Origin: Octopus vulgaris | Lineage: Eukaryota | Assembly (NCBI GenBank): GCA_951406725.2 | Contig: OX597833.1 | Location: forward strand, 24,986,001 to 25,050,000 | Direction: 5' to 3' | DNA: 64,000 nucleotides | Shown: in pieces, positions 1 through 35,671 of the stretch | Numbering within the stretch: position 1 is the first letter of the stretch | How the letters are laid out: each line of letters starts with the position of its first letter | Notes under the pieces: model-generated | What the model was told of the DNA's origin: nothing | What the model saw: the letters and a program-made list of their open reading frames with translations, nothing else | Database searches by the model: none | Program-made: the position numbers and the translations under genes

Positions 1-444
1 AACTAACCTGATTAAATTAAATCAAGCCAATCTTCCATAAGCCCTCAGATTCTTCAGCAAGAAATAGCTCAAGTCGGAACAGATATTTACACGAGGCATA
101 CCCAATCCTGCCAAGGCAATATCTGACCTAAAATTTTCAAATCGTCGCACTCGCGCCAAATTTATCGGCAGCAAATAAATCGTCGATTCCATTACGGAAT
201 TAACCAAAAAATTCATAATTAATCAATATAGGGTGGCAAGGAAAATTTTGTAGAATTTTTTTTGCCACCAGCGGCCCAGTGGGAAAAAATTAAATAGTCA
301 TAGACCATTTTTAAGTTCAACATTAACAATTAAGGAACGGCCATAATAGGCCATTCACCCACTAGAAATAACAGCCAAAGCTTCTACCGCAAATAAAGAT
401 CAATTCCGTAAACAGGAGAAAATTAAAAAAACATTTACCCTGTA

Positions 445-551
445 ATTTCTTGTACGGTATACCGTTTCATCTGCTGTTTAATGGTAAACTAACCTGATTA
501 AATTAAATCAAGCCAATCTTCCATAAGCCCTCAGATTCTTCAGCAAGAAAT
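445..551 (-). ncRNA. Type I hammerhead ribozyme, copy 1 (predicted cut between 453 and 452)
   Basis: Minus strand reads ATTTCTTG-CTGAAGA-ATCTG-[extended hairpin]-CAGAT-GAAA-CGGTATACCG-TA-CAAGAAAT: 8-bp stem I, canonical CUGANGA/GAAA core, 5-bp basal stem II, stem III and GUA triplet. Confidence 0.9.
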
Positions 552-930
552 AGCTCAAGTCGGAACAGATATTTACACGAGGCATACCCAATCCTGCCAA
601 GGCAATATCTGACCTAAAATTTTCAAATCGTCGCACTCGCGCCAAATTTATCGGCAGCAAATAAATCGTCGATTCCATTACGGAATTAACTAAAAAATTC
701 ATAATTAATCAATATAGGGTGGCAAGGAAAATTTTGTAGAATTTTTTTTGCCACCAGCGGCCCAGTGGGAAAAAATTAAATAGTCATAGACCATTTTTAA
801 GTTCAACATTAACAATTAAGGAACGGCCATAATAGGCCATTCACCCACTAGAAATAACAGCCAAAGCTTCTACCGCAAATAAAGATCAATTCCGTAAACA
901 GGAGAAAATTAAAAAAACATTTACCCTGTA

Positions 931-1037
931 ATTTCTTGTACGGTATACCGTTTCATCTGCTGTTTAATGGTAAACTAACCTGATTAAATTAAATCAAGCC
1001 AATCTTCCATAAGCCCTCAGATTCTTCAGCAAGAAAT
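931..1037 (-). ncRNA. Type I hammerhead ribozyme, copy 2
   Basis: Same motif as 445-551, shifted by 486 bp. Confidence 0.9.
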
Positions 1038-1419
1038 AGCTCAAGTCGGAACAGATATTTACACGAGGCATACCCAATCCTGCCAAGGCAATATCTGACC
1101 TAAAATTTTCAAATCGTCGCACTCGCGCCAAATTTATCGGCAGCAAATAAATCGTCGATTCCATTACGGAATTAACCAAAAAATTCATAATTAATCAATA
1201 TAGGGTGGCAAGGAAAATTTTGTAGAATTTTTTTTTTTGCCACCAGCGGCCCAGTGGGAAAAAATTAAATAGTCATAGACCATTTTTAAGTTCAACATTA
1301 ACAATTAAGGAACGGCCATAATAGGCCATTCACCCACTAGAAATAACAGCCAAAGCTTCTACCGCAAATAAAGATCAATTCCGTAAACAGGAGAAAATTA
1401 AAAAAACATTTACCCTGTA

Positions 1420-1526
1420 ATTTCTTGTACGGTATACCGTTTCATCTGCTGTTTAATGGTAAACTAACCTGATTAAATTAAATCAAGCCAATCTTCCATA
1501 AGCCCTCAGATTCTTCAGCAAGAAAT
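1420..1526 (-). ncRNA. Type I hammerhead ribozyme, copy 3
   Basis: Same motif as 445-551. Confidence 0.9.
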
Positions 1527-1903
1527 AGCTCAAGTCGGAACAGATATTTACACGAGGCATACCCAATCCTGCCAAGGCAATATCTGACCTAAAATTTTCA
1601 AATCGTCGCACTCGCGCCAAATTTATCGGCAGCAAATAAATCGTCGATTCCATTACGGAATTAACCAAAAAATTCATAATTAATCAATATAGGGTGGCAA
1701 GGAAAATTTTGTAGAATTTTTTGCCACCAGCGGCCCAGTGGGAAAAAATTAAATAGTCATAGACCATTTTTAAGTTCAACATTAACAATTAAGGAACGGC
1801 CATAATAGGCCATTCACCCACTAGAAATAACAGCCAAAGCTTCTACCGCAAATAAAGATCAATTCCGTAAACAGGAGAAAATTAAAAAAACATTTACCCT
1901 GTA

Positions 1904-2010
1904 ATTTCTTGTACGGTATACCGTTTCATCTGCTGTTTAATGGTAAACTAACCTGATTAAATTAAATCAAGCCAATCTTCCATAAGCCCTCAGATTCTTC
2001 AGCAAGAAAT
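1904..2010 (-). ncRNA. Type I hammerhead ribozyme, copy 4
   Basis: Same motif as 445-551. Confidence 0.9.
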
Positions 2011-2064
2011 AGCTCAAGTCGGAACAGATATTTACACGAGGCATACCCAATCCTTATCTGACCT

Positions 2065-2896
2065 AAAATTTTCCTTGCCACCCTATATTGATTAATTATG
2101 AATTTTTGGTTAATTCAATGGAATCGACGATTTATTTGCTGCCGATAAATTTGGCAGTGCGACGATTTGAAAATTTTAGGTCAGATGCCTTGGCAGGATT
2201 GGGTATGCCTCGTGTAATATCTGTTCCGACTTGAGCTATTTCTTGCTGAAGAATCTGAGGGCTTATGGAAGATTGGCTTGATTTAATTTAATCAGGTTAG
2301 TTTACCATTAAACAGCAGATGAAACGGTATACCGTACAAGAAATTACAGGGTAAATGTTTTTTTAATTTTCTCCTGTTTACGGAATTGATCTTTATTTGC
2401 GGTAGAAGCTTTGGCTGTTATTTCTAGTGGGTGAATGGCCTATTATGGCCGTTCCTTAATTGTTAATGTTGAACTTAAAAATGGTCTATGACTATTTAAT
2501 TTTTTCCCACTGGGCCGCTGGTGGCAAAAAATTCTACAAAATTTTCCTTGCCACCCTATATTGATTAATTATGAATTTTTTGGTTAATTCCGTAATGGAA
2601 TCGACGATTTATTTGCTGCCGATAAATTTGGCGCGAGTGCGACGATTTGAAAATTTTAGGTCAGATATTGCCTTGGCATATATATATATATATATATGGA
2701 AGATTGGCTGGTTAGTTTACCATTAAACAGCAGATGATATACCGTACAAGAATTACAGGGTAAATGTTTTTTTAATTTTCTCCTGTTTACGGAATTGATC
2801 TTTATATATATATATGGCCGTTCCTTAATTGTTAATGTTGAACTTAAAAATGGTCTATGACTATTTAATTTTTTTCCCACTGGGCCGCTGGTGGCA
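2065..2896 (+). repeat. Inverted continuation of the same ~486-bp repeat, degenerating into (TA)n-interrupted pieces after ~2677
   Basis: From ~2065 the sequence is the reverse complement of the unit (e.g. GATTTAATTTAATCAGGTTAGTT at 2280-2302). Small deletions occur near the junction and (TA)n insertions at ~2678 and ~2803. Confidence 0.95.
2238..2344 (+). ncRNA. Type I hammerhead ribozyme, copy 5 (inverted block; predicted cut between 2336 and 2337)
   Basis: ATTTCTTG 2238-45, CTGAAGA 2246-52, ATCTG 2253-57, CAGAT 2316-20, GAAA 2321-24, CGGTATACCG 2325-34, TA 2335-36, CAAGAAAT 2337-44. Confidence 0.9.
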
Positions 2897-4360: not shown

Positions 4361-5056
4361 GTTCTATTAATGACAGCAGGACATATCTTTGTGCGAGAAG
4401 CAAAGGTACGTTATCTTCTTTCTTGTTATTTTTTTTAGAAATGTAAGGACACGTTTGTTTTGTGACAAACCAACACAGCGTTGTTGAATTACCATCGACA
4501 ACTTAGTATCTATCTGTTGTCTTTGGCAACTATTACGAGCAAAAGTAACACTGCAAACACTTTTGTTTCCGTTATGTTAATTAATGTTTTCCCTTATTAT
4601 ACTTGTATTATTTTTTCCTATTTGACAAAGCACACACGCGCGCGCGCGCAATAACTATTAGTTTCTAATTTTCAGTGCTCAGAGTCAGTCGTTTTCAAAC
4701 ATCGAAAGGAAAGTGAGTTCGCTTTTCTTTTGAAATATTGAAATATTCAGTTTGTATGTTTTTGAAATATGAAAGTGTGAAGAAAACTCTTATCTTTATG
4801 TTTTTGTCTTTTAGTTAAAAATCATTGTGAATAACACGTAGAAAACGACTGCTTCAAGCACACTTTTTTGACTTTATTTTTGGTTTTCGTAGTAATGTTA
4901 CAAACTCCATACGAGCGAAGTCATGAAATTGCTTTGTTGTTTAAACAATGTTTTAAAGTAACATTTCTAAGTAATACTTTTAATTAATGTTTTTAAAAGC
5001 AAGAAGTGTGTGCGGTTCTGTATTTAAGAGATGAGAAATTATGTACATTATTTATA

Positions 5057-5402
<346 letters not shown>

Positions 5403-7040
5403 CGTAAGAAGTGTGTATGCGGATGTTCATTTTGCATGTACCCGTGACGCCGCATATTTATACACGTAAGAATACTCATACAGACACAAATATCCACAAA
5501 TAGGCACGCGTCCATGTACACATTAGCATATGTACACATACGCAAACATAGACATCTACGTACACATATTAAAACATATATCAATAAAACATATTTCGAA
5601 AGCAAGGATGGTTGTATTTACAAAAAGAAACTCAGTCGCGTGTATACAAGGCGCTAAGCGCTCAGTTCTCTTGTACAATCTGCTACTGCTTTGAGTCAAA
5701 ATTCAAACTTTTTTTGTTCAAGCAAAGGTCACGCAGCACCTTTGATTTGAAGCTCCCCTTCCTGTATGGTTGGGCAATATCTACAACATAGCGGGTAGAG
5801 CAGGTAATTTTGATTTCCCGTAGACTTGTCTCACATAAAACAACATAAAAAAATAGCCAAAGAGTTAATATTTCAAACGAAAAAGCAGGCTCGGTTTATC
5901 AACTATTGATCGGAAACTAGTAACTCTGAGCACTGGAAACTGGATCCTTTCATTTACAATGTATAAAGAATACTCTGCTTTTGTTTCGAGCCGTATAATT
6001 TATCGCTTCTAGTATATTCATCCATACATATCTTAGTGTGTATGTGTGTGTGTAATAATATGCCAAGGGAACGCGTGTCTATGAAGTGTTCAGCGTTTTG
6101 CACGTTAATTTAACGTGAAGGCTGTTCTGTCAATTGGATCAATAGTAGCACTGGTCATCATAACTGACGGCGGAGTTCCATGATGAGAAAAAGAATATAC
6201 ACATATTTTTTCCATTGAATTTCCATTTCAAATACTTTTCGTAGAACACTTTGTGTTTAATTCAAAGTACATTTGCCTGAGGGCACTTTTCACCACTCGA
6301 AAAGGTGAGGCGACATAGAAATTAAATGTAAACACTAAAAATTAATTATGTGTCTAAAATATATATATATTTTTTTATTAACTCTATTAGTATGATTTTT
6401 CAATATTACACTAAGTAATATATAGTTTATTTCAAATCACTTCTTTTAGTTCAATTTCGTATGCGGGAAACATTATAATTAAAGACCAGAGCTAATGTCT
6501 AGACTAAAGCACTTCCTAACTTGGTGAATATCAATCTTATCCGTCACTTCTGCGGTTATTTCCTTGTTGCCTTCTTTATTTTATGTATAGATTGCATTTC
6601 TTAAATTCCACTTCTTTTTTTCTTTGCTAACGTACTTTGTTTTTCCTTCTTTCTCACATTCAATCTAAGCTATTTATTCACCCTCACACAGATATCAATT
6701 ACTGGTAGTGAGAAGACCAATTTACGATGGAAACGGGTGAATGAGTCTAAGAAACCAGTCGTTAATAGAGGAACAAAGTGAGCTCTACTTCCTGAAGTAT
6801 TGTGAGAAGCGTTATACTTATGGCTAGAACCGTAATTCGCATACACACACAGTTTTGTGTGTGTACATGTTAATATAGACACACATAAACACACGTATGT
6901 ATGCACACGCTTTCGTCCATATGTATGGTTCCTTAATTTAAAAAAACAATTAATAATGCGTGTACACAAATATATGTACGTATATATGTATGTATATATG
7001 TATACATGCATATATATGTGTATATATACATACATATATA

Positions 7041-7048
7041 CGTATCTA

Positions 7049-7092
<44 letters not shown>

Positions 7093-7100
7093 TTTATCTA

Positions 7101-7148
<48 letters not shown>

Positions 7149-7162
7149 TCTATCTGTCTGTC

Positions 7163-7197
<35 letters not shown>

Positions 7198-7226
7198 TTC
7201 TTTCTATCTATCTATCTATCTATCTA

Positions 7227-7313
<87 letters not shown>
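7041..7313. repeat. Compound (CTAT)n/(CTGT)n microsatellite
   Basis: Direct reading. Confidence 0.95.
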
Positions 7314-7314
<1 letters not shown>

Positions 7315-7340
7315 CATCTTTTTATCTGCTTATGTATGTA

Positions 7341-8358
7341 TACCAATATTCAATTTATATCAAGATTTCTTGCCAATATAGAAAGAACCGGTTTCTTAAC
7401 TAGATCCAAGGCTCCTTCATTGGAATTTGAACATCAACAACATTGTATTTTTGTTTGTTTGTTTGTATGTATGTATGTATGTATATATGTATGTATGCAT
7501 GCATGTATGTATTTATGTATATTTGTATGTATGTATGTATGTATGTATGTATGTATGTATGTATGTATGTATGTATGTATGTATGTATGTGCAGATTTGT
7601 ATGTTTTATATATGCATTGTCATGCATATAGGTACACATCTAGATGTGCTCTTATATATCTAAATAATAAACTTCTGGAAAGTTTTAAAGATTTTTCAGT
7701 TCCAGTGATAGATTGTATCTGTAGTCTTCGAATTAGCGTCCTCCTTTCTGGTTTTGAGAAAACTAATTTCTCAAGAATGGTATTCAGGCAGTGTGTTACA
7801 TATCCCAGGGTCCCAATAATTACAGGTATAAACCTGAACTTGTAATCTGGATAAAGTAACTGCAGATTTCTCAATAGTTCGGCATAGGTGTTCTCTTTTT
7901 CACTGTTCTTCAGCTTTATGTTAACATCCACTGGGCAGCTAATTTCCACAACTGTGCACAGTTTCTCTTCTCTATCCCAAATCATTATATCAGGTCTGTC
8001 GTGCTTACATTTTATTGAGGTCTTCATTGGTATATTCCATCGGTATTCCTTTTCATTATGAGTATCTATGGCTTCTACCATATTGTGGGTTTTTATTTCT
8101 TCGTCTTCGGGATTATTCTTCCGACATATTTCATTATAGAGTATCCTAGCTACAAAGTTATGTTTCATCGGTAGATAATACCGTGATGACATTTTTGGAC
8201 AACTGCTTATGAAGAGGGTGATATCTTCAGTATGAAGCCCACAAAGTCTTCATCGGTTGTCACACTTTACAGATTTTCCCGCATCTCTATCCTTTTTGTG
8301 CATCAGGTACTTGGTTGATATTTTCCGTTCCTTGATTGCAAACGCATACTCTTCAAGG
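7341..8358 (-). mobile_element. 5'-truncated R4/Dong-like non-LTR retrotransposon (CCHC knuckle + REL endonuclease), flanked and interrupted by (CATA)n
   Basis: ORF 7620-8192 contains RPDIMIWD...VVEISCPVDVN..K..EK..Y..L..PVIIGTLG (PD-(D/E)xK REL motif). The zinc-knuckle region lies upstream at 8190-8270. Confidence 0.85.
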
Positions 8359-27781: not shown

Positions 27782-30620
27782 TAATAATAATAATAATAAT
27801 AATTGTGTACAGTGCTCAGGTGCACTACAACTCATCTAAAGTGTATATATAATCAGGTGAAGTTTCGGCGGATTTCGGAAAGCATGAGGGCCTTAAAAGA
27901 TGCAGTGTCATGGCAGTCAACAACTGACGCAGGCAGTTTATTCCATGCTTCAGCAACTCTGAGCGTGAAAAAATGTTTCCGAAAGTCATGGGAGCTGTAT
28001 TGTTTTCTGACTTTGTAGGCATGTCCACGTGTGTTAGACACATGGAGATCAAAAAGGTGTTCAGTGTTGTTGTTGGTGAGGTGGTTGATAACTTTGTGGG
28101 TGTTTACCAAGTCCGTCGCCAAACGCCGGAGCTTCAGTGAATCCATGCCCAGGGAAACAAGGCGCTCAGAATATGGTAGGTGTCTGATGGAGGGTATGCG
28201 TTTGGTTGCACGTCTCTGGACAGATTCCAGGAGGTCAATGTTCTGTGCAAGATAGGGGTTCCAAACTGATGATGCGAATTCCAAGTGTGGTCGTACCATA
28301 GCTGTATACAGTTTTAAATAGATGGCTGGAGAGCGGCTAACAAAAGACCTGCTGAGTGATGCCAAGACACCCTCGGCCTTCCTGACAATCTTAGAGATAT
28401 GCTTTGACCAACGCAAATCACTGCTGACAGTGATGCCTAGGTCACGCTCGCAAGAGGATTTCTTGATATCAGTGTTGTGGAGGGAGTATGTGAACGCAGG
28501 GTTTTTTCTCCCAAAATGCATGGTGGTACACTTGTCCACAGCCAGTTTCAGTTGCCAGTCTGTGATCCATTGCTGCATTGTGTCTAGGTCTGATTGCAGG
28601 AAAGAGTTGTAGACATCAGGATCTGTCCTCTTGATTTCAAGGTACAGCTTGATGTCGTCTGCATATTTCAATACTGTGGCATTCTTTAAATTGGCATCTA
28701 TGTCGTTAATGTATGCCACAAACAAGAGGGGGCCAAGGACAGATCCCTGTGGTACACCCGATGACATCTCATATGGTGTAGAGTGCTGTCCTAGAACTGT
28801 GACTACCTCCTTTCGGCTGAGGATGAAGGATTTCAACCAGTTAAAAAGGTCATCCCCCACACCCATTGCAGAGAGTTTCACCATAAGCCTTTTGTGTGGC
28901 ACAGAGTTGAAAGCCTTAGCAAAGTCAAGGTAGACAACATCCACCCATGAGCCACTGTCAGTAATCTGAGTAATGTCCTCAAGGAACTCGACAAGCTGGT
29001 CACTGCAGCTGGAGTTAGGGACAAATCCATATTGTGAGGGTCGGATGAGACTGTGAGAGCTCCAGAAGTTCCAGAGTGTTTCTCTGACACACGATTCCAT
29101 CAGTTTTGCAATACAGCTAGTGAGACTGACTGGGCGATAGTTGACAGGTGATGTGCGGTCGCCCTTTTTGAACAGAGGAATGACACTGGCAGTTTTCCAC
29201 TGCTCCGGAGTAGCACCATTGTTGAGACAGTACTGGAAGAAAATAGAAAGCTGGTGTAAAAGGAAGTGCCTGCCACGTTTGAGAAGCAGGTATGTAACTC
29301 CATCGAGACCAGGGGAGGCATAGTTGCGCTTATTTTGAAGGTGACGTCGCAGCATTGCAGGTGTAAATTCCATAGTTGTTATGGAGTTTGCTGTTAGTGA
29401 TGGTGAAGATGGTACATTTTGACTTTCAACAGTGAATATGTTTGCATAGCACTCGGCAATGAGTTCTGCGCATTCCTTGGGGTCGTCAGTGATCTGGTTT
29501 GTGTGAGGGTTGCGAAGAGGGCCCACTGGAGAGTGAGGTCTCTGCTTTGAGTGCACATATTTCCAGAAAACCTTGCTGTCAGGATTGGCTGCTATGCACT
29601 GTTCAAATTCAAGCACTGCTTTTTTTGTCACTTGCTTGAGATGGTTGGAGGATTTATTCCGCTTCTTCCTGTTGGTGTCTGATTTATGCAACCTGTATTC
29701 CCGTTCAGCAGTCCGACGTTCCCTCCTGGCAAGTCGGACCGCTGAAGTTTCCCAAATTGCCCTTTTGGGGCGGTTCTTCTTTTTTTGTTTACGTGGCACT
29801 GATGCTGCACATGCTGCCCATATTGAGTCCAGGATACTCTGGAGTATAGTATTCACATCTCCAGAGTTGTAGAATTCACGCCAGTTTGGGTGCTGTAGTT
29901 CAGTGTGGTACAGGTTCCAATCTGCTCTCTTCCAATCGAAGGAAGCAGATTGGAGATGGTTCAGGTTTTTGTTGCCCGCAAGAGCCAGATTGGCGATGAT
30001 CATAGCATGATCAGAGTCACCTAGAGGTTCCTCCGTAGTGCAATTGATAACCGCTTCAGGAGTTGTGGTGAAGAGCAGGTCCAAGGTGTTGTCGCCTCTT
30101 GTTGGAGAGGTGACTACTTGTGACCAGTTTGAGTCCAGCACAAGCTCAACAAAATCGTTTGCACTCTGTGGCCAATGGAAGGTCTCCCAATCGATCTCAG
30201 GATGATTGAAATCGCCTGCAATAAACACATAAGTGGCTGTTTTCCTGGCAGCAGCTCGGAGGACATTGCAAAGCTGTGTGTCCCGATGGTAACTTGGGGG
30301 ACGATAAACAACGCCAAGCAGGAGTGTTGACATGGTCATACGCACGTCACAGAAAAAAACTTCTTCTTGTGATTCGTTCAAATCGGCACAAGGAATTACC
30401 AAAAAATTTGAACGAACGTAGACCATCACACCACCACCACGGCGGTTAGTGCGGTCCTTACGGAAGAGGTTGTACCCCGTAATGTTGAAAACCCCATCAC
30501 AGAGTAAGGAATGCGCCCATGTTTCCGTGACAGTGATGAAGTCAGGGTCAACACTTCTGACGTAGGCGTTGAACAAATGTATTTTGTTGCATAAACTGCG
30601 AGCATTTAAGGACAACAATT
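27782..30620 (-). mobile_element. Young CR1-like LINE, lacking ORF1/5'UTR, with 3' stem-loop and (ATT)n tail
   Basis: Uninterrupted ORF2; short 3'UTR with TGTAGTGC/GCACTGTA stem followed by (ATT)n. Confidence 0.92.
27853..30618 (-). CDS. LINE ORF2: APE endonuclease + reverse transcriptase (921 aa, no ATG start)
   Basis: APE motifs NARSL, ITVTETW, YRPP, GDFN, LDL, SDH; RT motifs NYRPVSL, QYGF, LDFAKAF, GVPQGSVLGPLLF, YADD; C-terminal RGH..K, WNKLP. Confidence 0.95.
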   Translation of the reverse strand: MLSLNARSLCNKIHLFNAYVRSVDPDFITVTETWAHSLLCDGVFNITGYNLFRKDRTNRRGGGVMVYVRSNFLVIPCADLNESQEEVFFCDVRMTMSTLLLGVVYRPPSYHRDTQLCNVLRAAARKTATYVFIAGDFNHPEIDWETFHWPQSANDFVELVLDSNWSQVVTSPTRGDNTLDLLFTTTPEAVINCTTEEPLGDSDHAMIIANLALAGNKNLNHLQSASFDWKRADWNLYHTELQHPNWREFYNSGDVNTILQSILDSIWAACAASVPRKQKKKNRPKRAIWETSAVRLARRERRTAEREYRLHKSDTNRKKRNKSSNHLKQVTKKAVLEFEQCIAANPDSKVFWKYVHSKQRPHSPVGPLRNPHTNQITDDPKECAELIAECYANIFTVESQNVPSSPSLTANSITTMEFTPAMLRRHLQNKRNYASPGLDGVTYLLLKRGRHFLLHQLSIFFQYCLNNGATPEQWKTASVIPLFKKGDRTSPVNYRPVSLTSCIAKLMESCVRETLWNFWSSHSLIRPSQYGFVPNSSCSDQLVEFLEDITQITDSGSWVDVVYLDFAKAFNSVPHKRLMVKLSAMGVGDDLFNWLKSFILSRKEVVTVLGQHSTPYEMSSGVPQGSVLGPLLFVAYINDIDANLKNATVLKYADDIKLYLEIKRTDPDVYNSFLQSDLDTMQQWITDWQLKLAVDKCTTMHFGRKNPAFTYSLHNTDIKKSSCERDLGITVSSDLRWSKHISKIVRKAEGVLASLSRSFVSRSPAIYLKLYTAMVRPHLEFASSVWNPYLAQNIDLLESVQRRATKRIPSIRHLPYSERLVSLGMDSLKLRRLATDLVNTHKVINHLTNNNTEHLFDLHVSNTRGHAYKVRKQYSSHDFRKHFFTLRVAEAWNKLPASVVDCHDTASFKALMLSEIRRNFT

Positions 30621-31059
30621 TGTTTAGAAGTAAATGTTTAGAAGTAATTGTGAAAAATTTGCCTTTGCTTTGAAAAGCTTTCCTAAATAGATAAAAACAT
30701 GGAATTAACCTCGGCGGAATTTGAACTCAGAACGTAAAAGGAAAAGCGGTATTAACCTGGTCGGCTTCATATCAACATAGAATCAACAAATGCATTCCTT
30801 TAAAAAGGAAAGAAGTCAAATTCAGGGAGCTTTCAAAAGATTCAGTTACGGTGATGACGGCAACAACAAGAACAGCAGTGACAACAATAGCACCATCACC
30901 GCCGCCACCACTACCACCGCCGCCACCACCGCCGCCGCCACCACCACCACCACCACTACCACCACCTCATCCCCCCTCCATCCCACCCGACAACAGCATG
31001 GACAATAACAACAAAAGGGAAAATAAAAAAAATAATGATAATTGTTATAGGAATAAGGG

Positions 31060-34779: not shown

Positions 34780-35353
34780 CGCTAATGCATCGTTTCAGTA
34801 GTAACTTATGTGTCTATTTAAAAGTATGTCTGTAAATATACGAATGTATATATATATATACAAACGCACATATTCATATATACATATATATGTATGTCTT
34901 TATGTATGTATGCGTGTTGCGTGTGTATGCATATGCATATATGCATGAATGTATATATGTGTATATTTGTATATGATTTATAGTTATGTGAGTGTGCATG
35001 TGTACAAGTGTGTATTTGTCAGTGTCTAAATTCATATATGATAGTACTTGCACTTCACACATATAGCAGCGCTAATGCATCTTTTCAGTAGTAACTTATG
35101 TGTCTATTTAAAAGTATGTCTGTAAATATACGAATGTATATATATATATACAAACGCACATATTCATATATACATATATATGTATGTCTTTATGTATGTA
35201 TGCTTGTTGCGTGTGTATGCATATGCATATATGCATGAATGTATATATGTGTATATTTGTATATGATTTATAGTTATGTGAGTGTGCATGTGTACAAGTG
35301 TGTATTTGTCAGTGTCTAAATTCATATATGATAGTACTTGCACTTCACACATA
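34780..35353. repeat. Near-identical tandem duplication, period 290 bp
   Basis: CGCTAATGCATC...CACTTCACACATA at 34780-35063 and 35070-35353. Confidence 0.95.
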
Positions 35354-35413
35354 CATACGCACGCATACATACGCACGCATACATACGCACGCACACATAC
35401 ACACACGACACAT

Positions 35414-35447
<34 letters not shown>

Positions 35448-35671
35448 GCAAAACTATATATAGATATATATTTGCACATACATATACGTTTGGAGTGTGT
35501 ATGTGTGTGTGTCTATGAATGCAATCGTATATGTGTGTGTGTATATATACATACATATACTTGTACAAACATATATATATATCCACACACAATATAATAT
35601 ATATATATTTATATATATATATATATATATATATACATACATATACATACATATGTATATATATATATATT

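Follow-up and report, generated by a model that had tools for sequence, protein, structure and literature searches.

A dispersed hammerhead ribozyme repeat of Octopus vulgaris with a Penelope-like insertion footprint

A 486-bp repeat in Octopus vulgaris is a dispersed mobile element that occurs in short arrays, not a local satellite. It is very probably a non-coding, non-autonomous non-LTR retrozyme that borrows the reverse transcriptase (RT)/GIY-YIG protein of Penelope-like elements (PLEs). The kind of element is known, and in all likelihood its insertion signature ties it to the PLE machinery. Animal hammerhead repeats have been known for decades, and PLEs have been suspected as their movers on the basis of co-occurrence and sequence likeness. 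The mechanism is called unresolved in the text available from a preprint, which suggests local growth of arrays after insertion (10.64898/2026.07.22.740005). In contrast to local growth, the arrays described here appear to arrive ready-made with a PLE-type footprint. The footprint predicts exact RT start sites (unit positions 131 and 238), a (TA)n target and resident intact candidate enzymes. One assay could address the identity of the enzyme, the choice between circular and linear template, and the role of cleavage.

The hammerhead array in the window

The window is the whole 64-kb stretch of DNA analyzed here (GCA_951406725.2, contig OX597833.1, positions 24,986,001 to 25,050,000). A descriptor scan of both strands found exactly five type I hammerheads in it, confirming the coordinates and spacings given in an earlier note on this sequence. 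Four are on the minus strand, at 445-551, 931-1037, 1420-1526 and 1904-2010, with cuts at 453/452, 939/938, 1428/1427 and 1912/1911. The fifth is on the plus strand at 2238-2344, with the cut at 2336/2337; its stem II carries a 58-nt insert bearing an 18-bp hairpin. The cut sites in the array are spaced 486, 489 and 484 nt apart. Each hammerhead is composed of an 8-bp stem I, CUGAAGA, a 5-bp stem II, GAAA, a 12-nt palindromic stem III and a GUA cut site. The motif thus contains the type I core (CUGANGA, GAAA and NUH) and stems I to III, with stem I open. Stem II is closed by A10.1-U11.1, where G-C is usual. Folding of 2238-2344 yields the hammerhead as the structure of lowest energy (-33.8 kcal/mol, z -5.5, 0/200 shuffles). 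When the unit was shuffled, 0 of 6,000 strands contained even a loose hammerhead motif. The earlier note placed a complete hammerhead in every unit. This holds for the five intact copies in the window, but a sixth copy on the plus strand, at about 2698-2755, is broken and lacks the catalytic core. A partial hammerhead is located at the window edge (1-65, minus strand; the whole motif spans -41 to 65).

The comparison with Rfam hammerhead models that the note had proposed gave a mixed outcome. The unit has no match at the gathering score, reaching 16.3 bits (E 0.22) against a cut-off of 34 for RF00163. Despite this score, the Hammerhead_1 model aligns end to end to the unit ribozyme. The 58-nt insert makes loop II long and lies outside the Rfam model. 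Matches to miRNA hairpins in 1900-2900 are sub-threshold in Rfam and are produced by the inversion of the array, and they were rejected.

The array consists of two arms. Tandem Repeats Finder (TRF) reported a period of 486, 4.2 copies and 99% for it. The left arm is on the minus strand at 1-2073 and extends 1,630 bp upstream of the window (4371-8073 in locus L031, where window coordinates are L031 coordinates minus 6000). It contains 7.6 tandem units in total. Its RNA 3' end is located at unit position 131 against (TA)n, and its 5' end at 315. The right arm, on the plus strand at 2065-2896, is inverted and head-to-head with the left. It starts with unit positions 204-486 and continues with 1-344, after which a damaged remainder (77-94% in parts) stops at unit position 190 instead of the usual 238. 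At the inversion junction (2065-2073) the arms overlap by 9 nt of microhomology. A (TA)n tract at 2678-2697 stands in place of part of the last unit, a second is found within the damaged end at 2803-2815, and a TG/TA microsatellite flanks the right end at 2897-2922. Nine intact ribozymes are present at the locus, of which the left arm contributes eight in succession and the right arm a single one; four are upstream of the window.

The cut-to-cut monomer at 453-938 (minus strand) was used as the reference unit. In it, the two positions at which arms end, sites A and B, are at about 131 (window 808) and about 238 (window 701). The longest Met-started frame in the unit is 64 aa, and an RT + GIY-YIG ORF is absent from both the unit and the array. 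Tandem non-coding units that carry a type I hammerhead in eight consecutive copies, where at least two are called for, give the repeat the anatomy of a metazoan non-LTR retrozyme, a class that is further defined by expression as monomeric linear and circular RNA (PMC7229834; 10.64898/2026.07.22.740005).

Dispersal and age of the family

Many large contigs contain matches to the unit at 96-100%; scoring 40 of 1,302 candidates yielded 264 of them. A ribozyme 20-mer of the window subfamily has 213 exact copies and a marker 16-mer next to site B 3,498; the reversed control gave 0 in each case. The GC content is below 45%. Near-identical units on many contigs and about 3,500 copies of the 16-mer replace the label of satellite, given in the earlier note, with that of a dispersed mobile element. 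Loci were sampled as 40 from the whole-unit list and 40 from the 16-mer list, the latter from the first 70 Mb of contig C1. The 16-mer loci on C1 are mostly 83-95% identical to the unit, with periods of 488-495 bp. The window subfamily is young, as the note had proposed for the family; the family as a whole is layered, with older subfamilies at 83-95% identity. We found no account of the 486-bp family in the literature, and the supplements of PMC7229834 and of the bioRxiv papers and the repeat databases may list it.

Sequencing runs were also compared, and among those listed with the family none is on record as RNA. Runs X16 and X19, labelled as two other organisms, also carry the family, and the longest X19 contig is up to about 5% diverged. 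Contigs of X1 and X7 (guessed to be RNA), X16 and X19 cover all 29 bins of the unit and contain the go-back joint. This joint was dropped as a sign of expression or circles because tandem DNA yields it too. An excess of T>C in X1 (A>G on the ribozyme strand) largely equals genomic lineage variants and was not taken as RNA editing.

Conservation of the ribozyme

Comparison of copies indicates that the ribozyme is under selection. The covariation set contained 19 distinct ribozyme sequences, one per locus, chosen by alignment and not by intactness. In these, 99.1% of pair cells are standard pairs. Two-sided changes are found at five pairs, of which stem I has one, stem II has three and the centre of the stem III palindrome has one, and slid controls gave 0. 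Covariation counts sequences and not events, and the data correspond to about five independent changes, not 21. Besides these compensatory changes, all four bases occur at N7; across lineages, only A and C are seen at H17, never G. None of 11 core positions is lineage-variable, compared to 74 of 347 elsewhere, a difference that is weak alone (p 0.075). Unit-private changes, which postdate insertion, reach the core at the background rate (3/2,057 versus 113/64,889). A core that is constant between lineages but open to private changes suggests that selection acts on spreading copies and not on resident ones.

The stem III palindrome may mediate contacts between ribozymes. A change of its centre from TATA to TGCA cannot pair inside one hairpin, which suggests pairing between two ribozymes in a dimer form. 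Such a form has been described for metazoan type I motifs (PMC4209133). The L076 subfamily breaks the central pair of stem III.

Analysis of whole units with RNAalifold found only one two-sided change outside the ribozyme, so that the backing for the rest of the fold is limited to energy and one-sided changes. Two blocks have no lineage-variable position in 60 loci. The first, window 2270-2303 (unit 421-453), is the hairpin capping stem II; the second, unit 74-113, is a hairpin just before site A. Both are candidate protein-binding or promoter elements.

The insertion footprint

Unit positions count from the cut site along the ribozyme strand, and we scored the footprint over 81 arrays in 79 loci. 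Locus L060 was excluded as a duplicate of L059, and one array at a locus edge was dropped. A single orientation is found in 27 of the 81 arrays. The two-orientation arrays are all head-to-head (54/54), with the RNA 3' ends pointing outward. Among 135 RNA 3' ends, 64 are at site A (120-140) and 67 at site B (228-250), together 131. All 50 inverted arrays with both ends classed have one A and one B end (p 9e-16), and the remaining four, including the window's damaged right end, each have one unclassed end. Selection of the older loci used a word adjacent to site B and so disfavours A+A; the rule also holds in 25/25 classed arrays among the 28 young inverted ones, which had been selected with the whole unit. 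A TA tract touches 130 of the 135 RNA 3' ends, compared to 83 of 1,560 background 25-mers. The 5' ends of the arms are scattered, and the arms are usually joined via an overlap of a few bases. The inverted copy is thus a 5'-truncated arm, and the extension is on one end only. These counts give the inversion a meaning that the earlier note had overlooked, as they are the pattern expected from PLE two-site priming.

It is scarcely credible that the inversion is a fold-back artefact of long reads. Damage in the right arm of the window would be in line with such an artefact, but one geometry is shared by 54 loci from both old and young strata, whose arms are unequal and differ in their A/B ends, which refutes it for the family.

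Spread at the DNA level is very improbable. Unequal crossing-over, Helitron-like transfer or eccDNA would be compatible with the tandem structure of the repeat and would leave the hammerhead as a relic, and local amplification from a PLE terminus has been suggested (10.64898/2026.07.22.740005). However, the 3' ends are strand-specific and fixed while the 5' ends vary, there are no unique termini, and (TA)n is found at nearly every end. Covariation between subfamilies counts against a relic ribozyme. The rule of one A and one B end refutes DNA-level spread unless a DNA mechanism reproduces it. Covariation, dispersal and footprint together support retrozyme-like spread through an RNA, as the note had suggested.

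The putative RT start sites (unit 96-131 and 186-238) have similar sequences, each with a GC-closed hairpin followed by 13-15 AU-rich bases. The longest array, with 14 junctions in one arm, is at L062 (G000:C1:195859501-195869500), where an older copy of the family is located 300 bp away.

Resident Penelope-like elements and the proposed mechanism

Insertions of PLEs have been described as an inverted 5'-truncated copy with a tail of 30-40 bp at one end (10.1101/2021.04.23.441226). In the anole, the PLE protein was shown to cleave AT-rich DNA on both strands and to prime reverse transcription at two sites within the RNA; the segment that separates these sites is the 'tail' (PMC11167929). The octopus genome contains 6,136 GIY-YIG candidates, and intact RT + GIY-YIG frames, identified with Pfam, are present. 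At least three young PLE families have open frames, of 781, 784 and 753 aa (L141-L152, L157-L170). In the 784-aa family, 14/14 copies end at (TA)n, with the two ends about 38 nt apart; its arms in L163 and L164 have one long and one short end. The 781-aa family also ends at (TA)n, with ends 37 nt apart (L144), as does a third family, with ends about 33 nt apart (L148). In all three the arms are inverted, one of them ending long and the other short, with the ends 33-40 nt apart. From a Zn-finger motif before the nuclease, the resident PLEs with RT and C-terminal GIY-YIG were assigned the label Neptune-like, a sequence-based reading that follows 10.1101/2021.04.23.441226. In the 781-aa family, a further frame of about 480 aa lies upstream and matches nothing in Pfam, and a hammerhead-like motif in which U and A replace C3 and G8 is located near the 3' end of the element.

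The element resembles endonuclease-bearing (EN+) PLEs in several respects. Both have the inverted 5'-truncated copy, the tail on one end only and a hammerhead upstream of the RT start sites, and the target, a (TA)n microsatellite, is the same as that of the resident EN+ PLEs. Unlike them, the element has no ORF, has many tandem units in both arms and carries a canonical full hammerhead where that of PLEs is minimal. Its tail, the A-to-B distance, is about 107 nt, about threefold the 30-40 nt described for PLEs and the 33-40 nt of the resident families. The unit shares no sequence with the 60 PLE loci compared, the 781- and 784-aa families among them, save for an unrelated neighboring fragment. 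A retrozyme fragment in PLE locus L113 was rejected as a chimera, being a separate insertion 1 kb from the PLE, and a 70% match (E 0.03) of unit 82-134 to a PLE ORF, in antisense, was taken as chance. The longer tail and the lack of shared sequence speak against a PLE partner. With target and geometry shared but no sequence, the partner would belong to the PLE class, and no particular family is singled out. The element is also unlike Chlamys PLEs such as MRC1, which are described as non-autonomous, algal and resembling the 3' end of their partner, in a clade reported to be without hammerheads (10.1101/2021.04.23.441226).

A LINE of the APE-RT type is quite unlikely as the mover. LINE twin priming also generates inversions, and the window itself contains an intact, uninterrupted 957-aa APE+RT LINE frame (27853-30726, minus strand). 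The element, however, has no poly(A) or tail repeat of its own, and both arms are copies of the same sequence that start at two fixed internal sites, which is the PLE pattern and is matched by the resident PLEs. A LINE mover is thus disfavoured.

Mobilization by a PLE protein would proceed as follows. The arrays would be transcribed from the ribozyme strand, probably by Pol II. Pol III is an unlikely polymerase given the runs of 7, 4, 6, 4, 6 and 4 T on the ribozyme strand of the unit, an argument of the earlier note that the run lengths bear out. The hammerheads would then cut, probably aided by pairing of the stem III palindrome between neighboring units, and release monomers, partly cut multimers and perhaps circles. 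The A10.1-U11.1 closing pair of stem II speaks against this step, as does an amphibian set of hammerheads in which cleavage was reported for only 1/9 constructs tested (10.64898/2026.07.22.740005). The PLE protein would nick both strands of a (TA)n tract, and RT would start inside the RNA at the two fixed sites, about 131 and about 238 nt past the cut, one per strand. Both cDNAs would traverse several units, and their ends would be joined by microhomology. The outcome would be a head-to-head double array within the microsatellite, inserted ready-made.

Circular or linear template

Whether the template is a circle or a linear RNA stands at about even odds. The homogeneity of arrays is what rolling-circle reverse transcription of a single circular monomer would give, a reading proposed in the retrozyme literature that we rate just short of an even chance. 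Units differ on average by 0.79 substitutions within an arm, 0.89 between arms and 4.14 between loci (134 units, 37 loci). We found 16 haplotypes in 29 loci, and 5,702 of 6,068 between-locus differences (94%) are fixed in all units of an array. Variants private to one sample locus, where private means private within 60 loci, are fixed across both arms in L052, L053 and L086, and across a single arm in L048. Homogeneous arrays with the same haplotype in both arms suggest repeated passage through a single unit that is multiplied again at insertion, as a circle would allow. Moreover, arms extend to 14 junctions with clean junctions at the cut site, and the retrozymes of mussel, coral and axolotl are described as circular (PMC7229834). 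A circular monomer has a favourable fold (-145 kcal/mol, z -7.4), but the linear form folds equally well.

The 5' ends of the arms bear on the same question. Within 40 nt past the cut we found 34 of 128 ends, with a hazard ratio of 3.2 in the first pass (p 1e-3) and 3.5 in later passes (19 stops in 191 passes, p 2e-5). Four of 132 arms had been dropped for internal rearrangement, and the 1-40 zone was picked after seeing the data. Only 3 of the 128 ends are at positions 1-5, and the enrichment is broad. We take it as moderate support for ribozyme cleavage in vivo; a predicted hairpin at unit 10-43 could be an alternative RT stop. The enrichment in later passes is contrary to what a sealed circle predicts, unless RT pauses at the ligation bond. 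Linear cut templates account for the cluster no less well than circles do.

Linear templates have close to an even chance as well. They would be partly cut multimers, or cut monomers joined by RT jumping, with circles absent or a side product. Besides the clustering in first and later passes, short double insertions in which both arms end past the cut (L097, L099, L102, L103, L107) are in line with them, and uncleaved RNA is reported as the main in vitro substrate of the anole PLE (PMC11167929). Mosaic arrays fit linear templates and count against a single circle: the array at L062 combines four haplotypes and is mosaic at two sites, and minority variants recur in L076, L078, L082 and L088, although assembly error or gene conversion could cause either. 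On the other hand, pure copying of linear multimers only shortens arrays and leaves many array-wide haplotypes unexplained, and minority variants are rarely common to loci (14/95 seen more than once). Jumps of RT should leave imprecise junctions, of which almost none is seen.

Rolling-circle copying leads to a further and tentative reading that we consider unlikely. The element would parasitize PLEs as a viroid-like circular RNA. It would not stem from a PLE terminus and would have evolved its own two-site landing pad, namely the hairpin and 13-15 AU-rich bases found twice, 107 nt apart. A PLE dimer would write both (TA)n strands by two rolling-circle reactions, and the hammerhead would be switched by dimerisation. 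If this were true, rolling-circle reverse transcription into an animal chromosome would have left its record in these arrays, and the enzyme class behind animal hammerhead satellites would be named.

Relation to known retrozymes and other features of the window

The element shares its basic organization with the metazoan non-LTR retrozymes described from coral, Mytilus and axolotl/newt satellite 2 (PMC7229834; 10.64898/2026.07.22.740005). In these, AT-rich non-coding units, every one with a single type I hammerhead, are arranged in tandem as dimers to multimers, at dispersed sites and alongside PLEs. At 486 nt the unit is longer than the 170-400 nt given for invertebrate retrozymes, but inside the range of 51-972 in the preprint (10.64898/2026.07.22.740005). 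The 58-nt insert in stem II and the 4-bp stem III within the 12-nt palindrome also set it apart. PLEs were proposed as retrozyme movers from shared ribozymes, co-occurrence and pLTR likeness (PMC7229834; 10.64898/2026.07.22.740005). In Xenopus, 24 of 57 retrozyme families match known elements, nearly all of them PLEs (10.64898/2026.07.22.740005), whereas our unit has no similarity to the sampled PLE termini. Head-to-head arms, a (TA)n target and two fixed ends are found here and are unmentioned for retrozymes in the available text of these two sources; the words 'inverted', 'target site' and 'microsatellite' are absent from that of PMC7229834, and 'tail' from that of 10.64898/2026.07.22.740005.

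Several additional features were observed. At 5100-5410 of the window, a hammerhead core of the minimal PLE type (CUGAUGA ... GAAAC at 5318), distinct from that of the unit, lies in a short repeat that has a partial inverted copy across an (ATT)n/(TAA)n tract. This repeat is probably what is left of another PLE-related family. The flanks of L087, L104 and L122 contain further type I hammerheads that are unrelated to the unit. At 34780-35471, microsatellite-rich DNA of the window contains a 290-bp tandem duplication of two copies with 99% identity.
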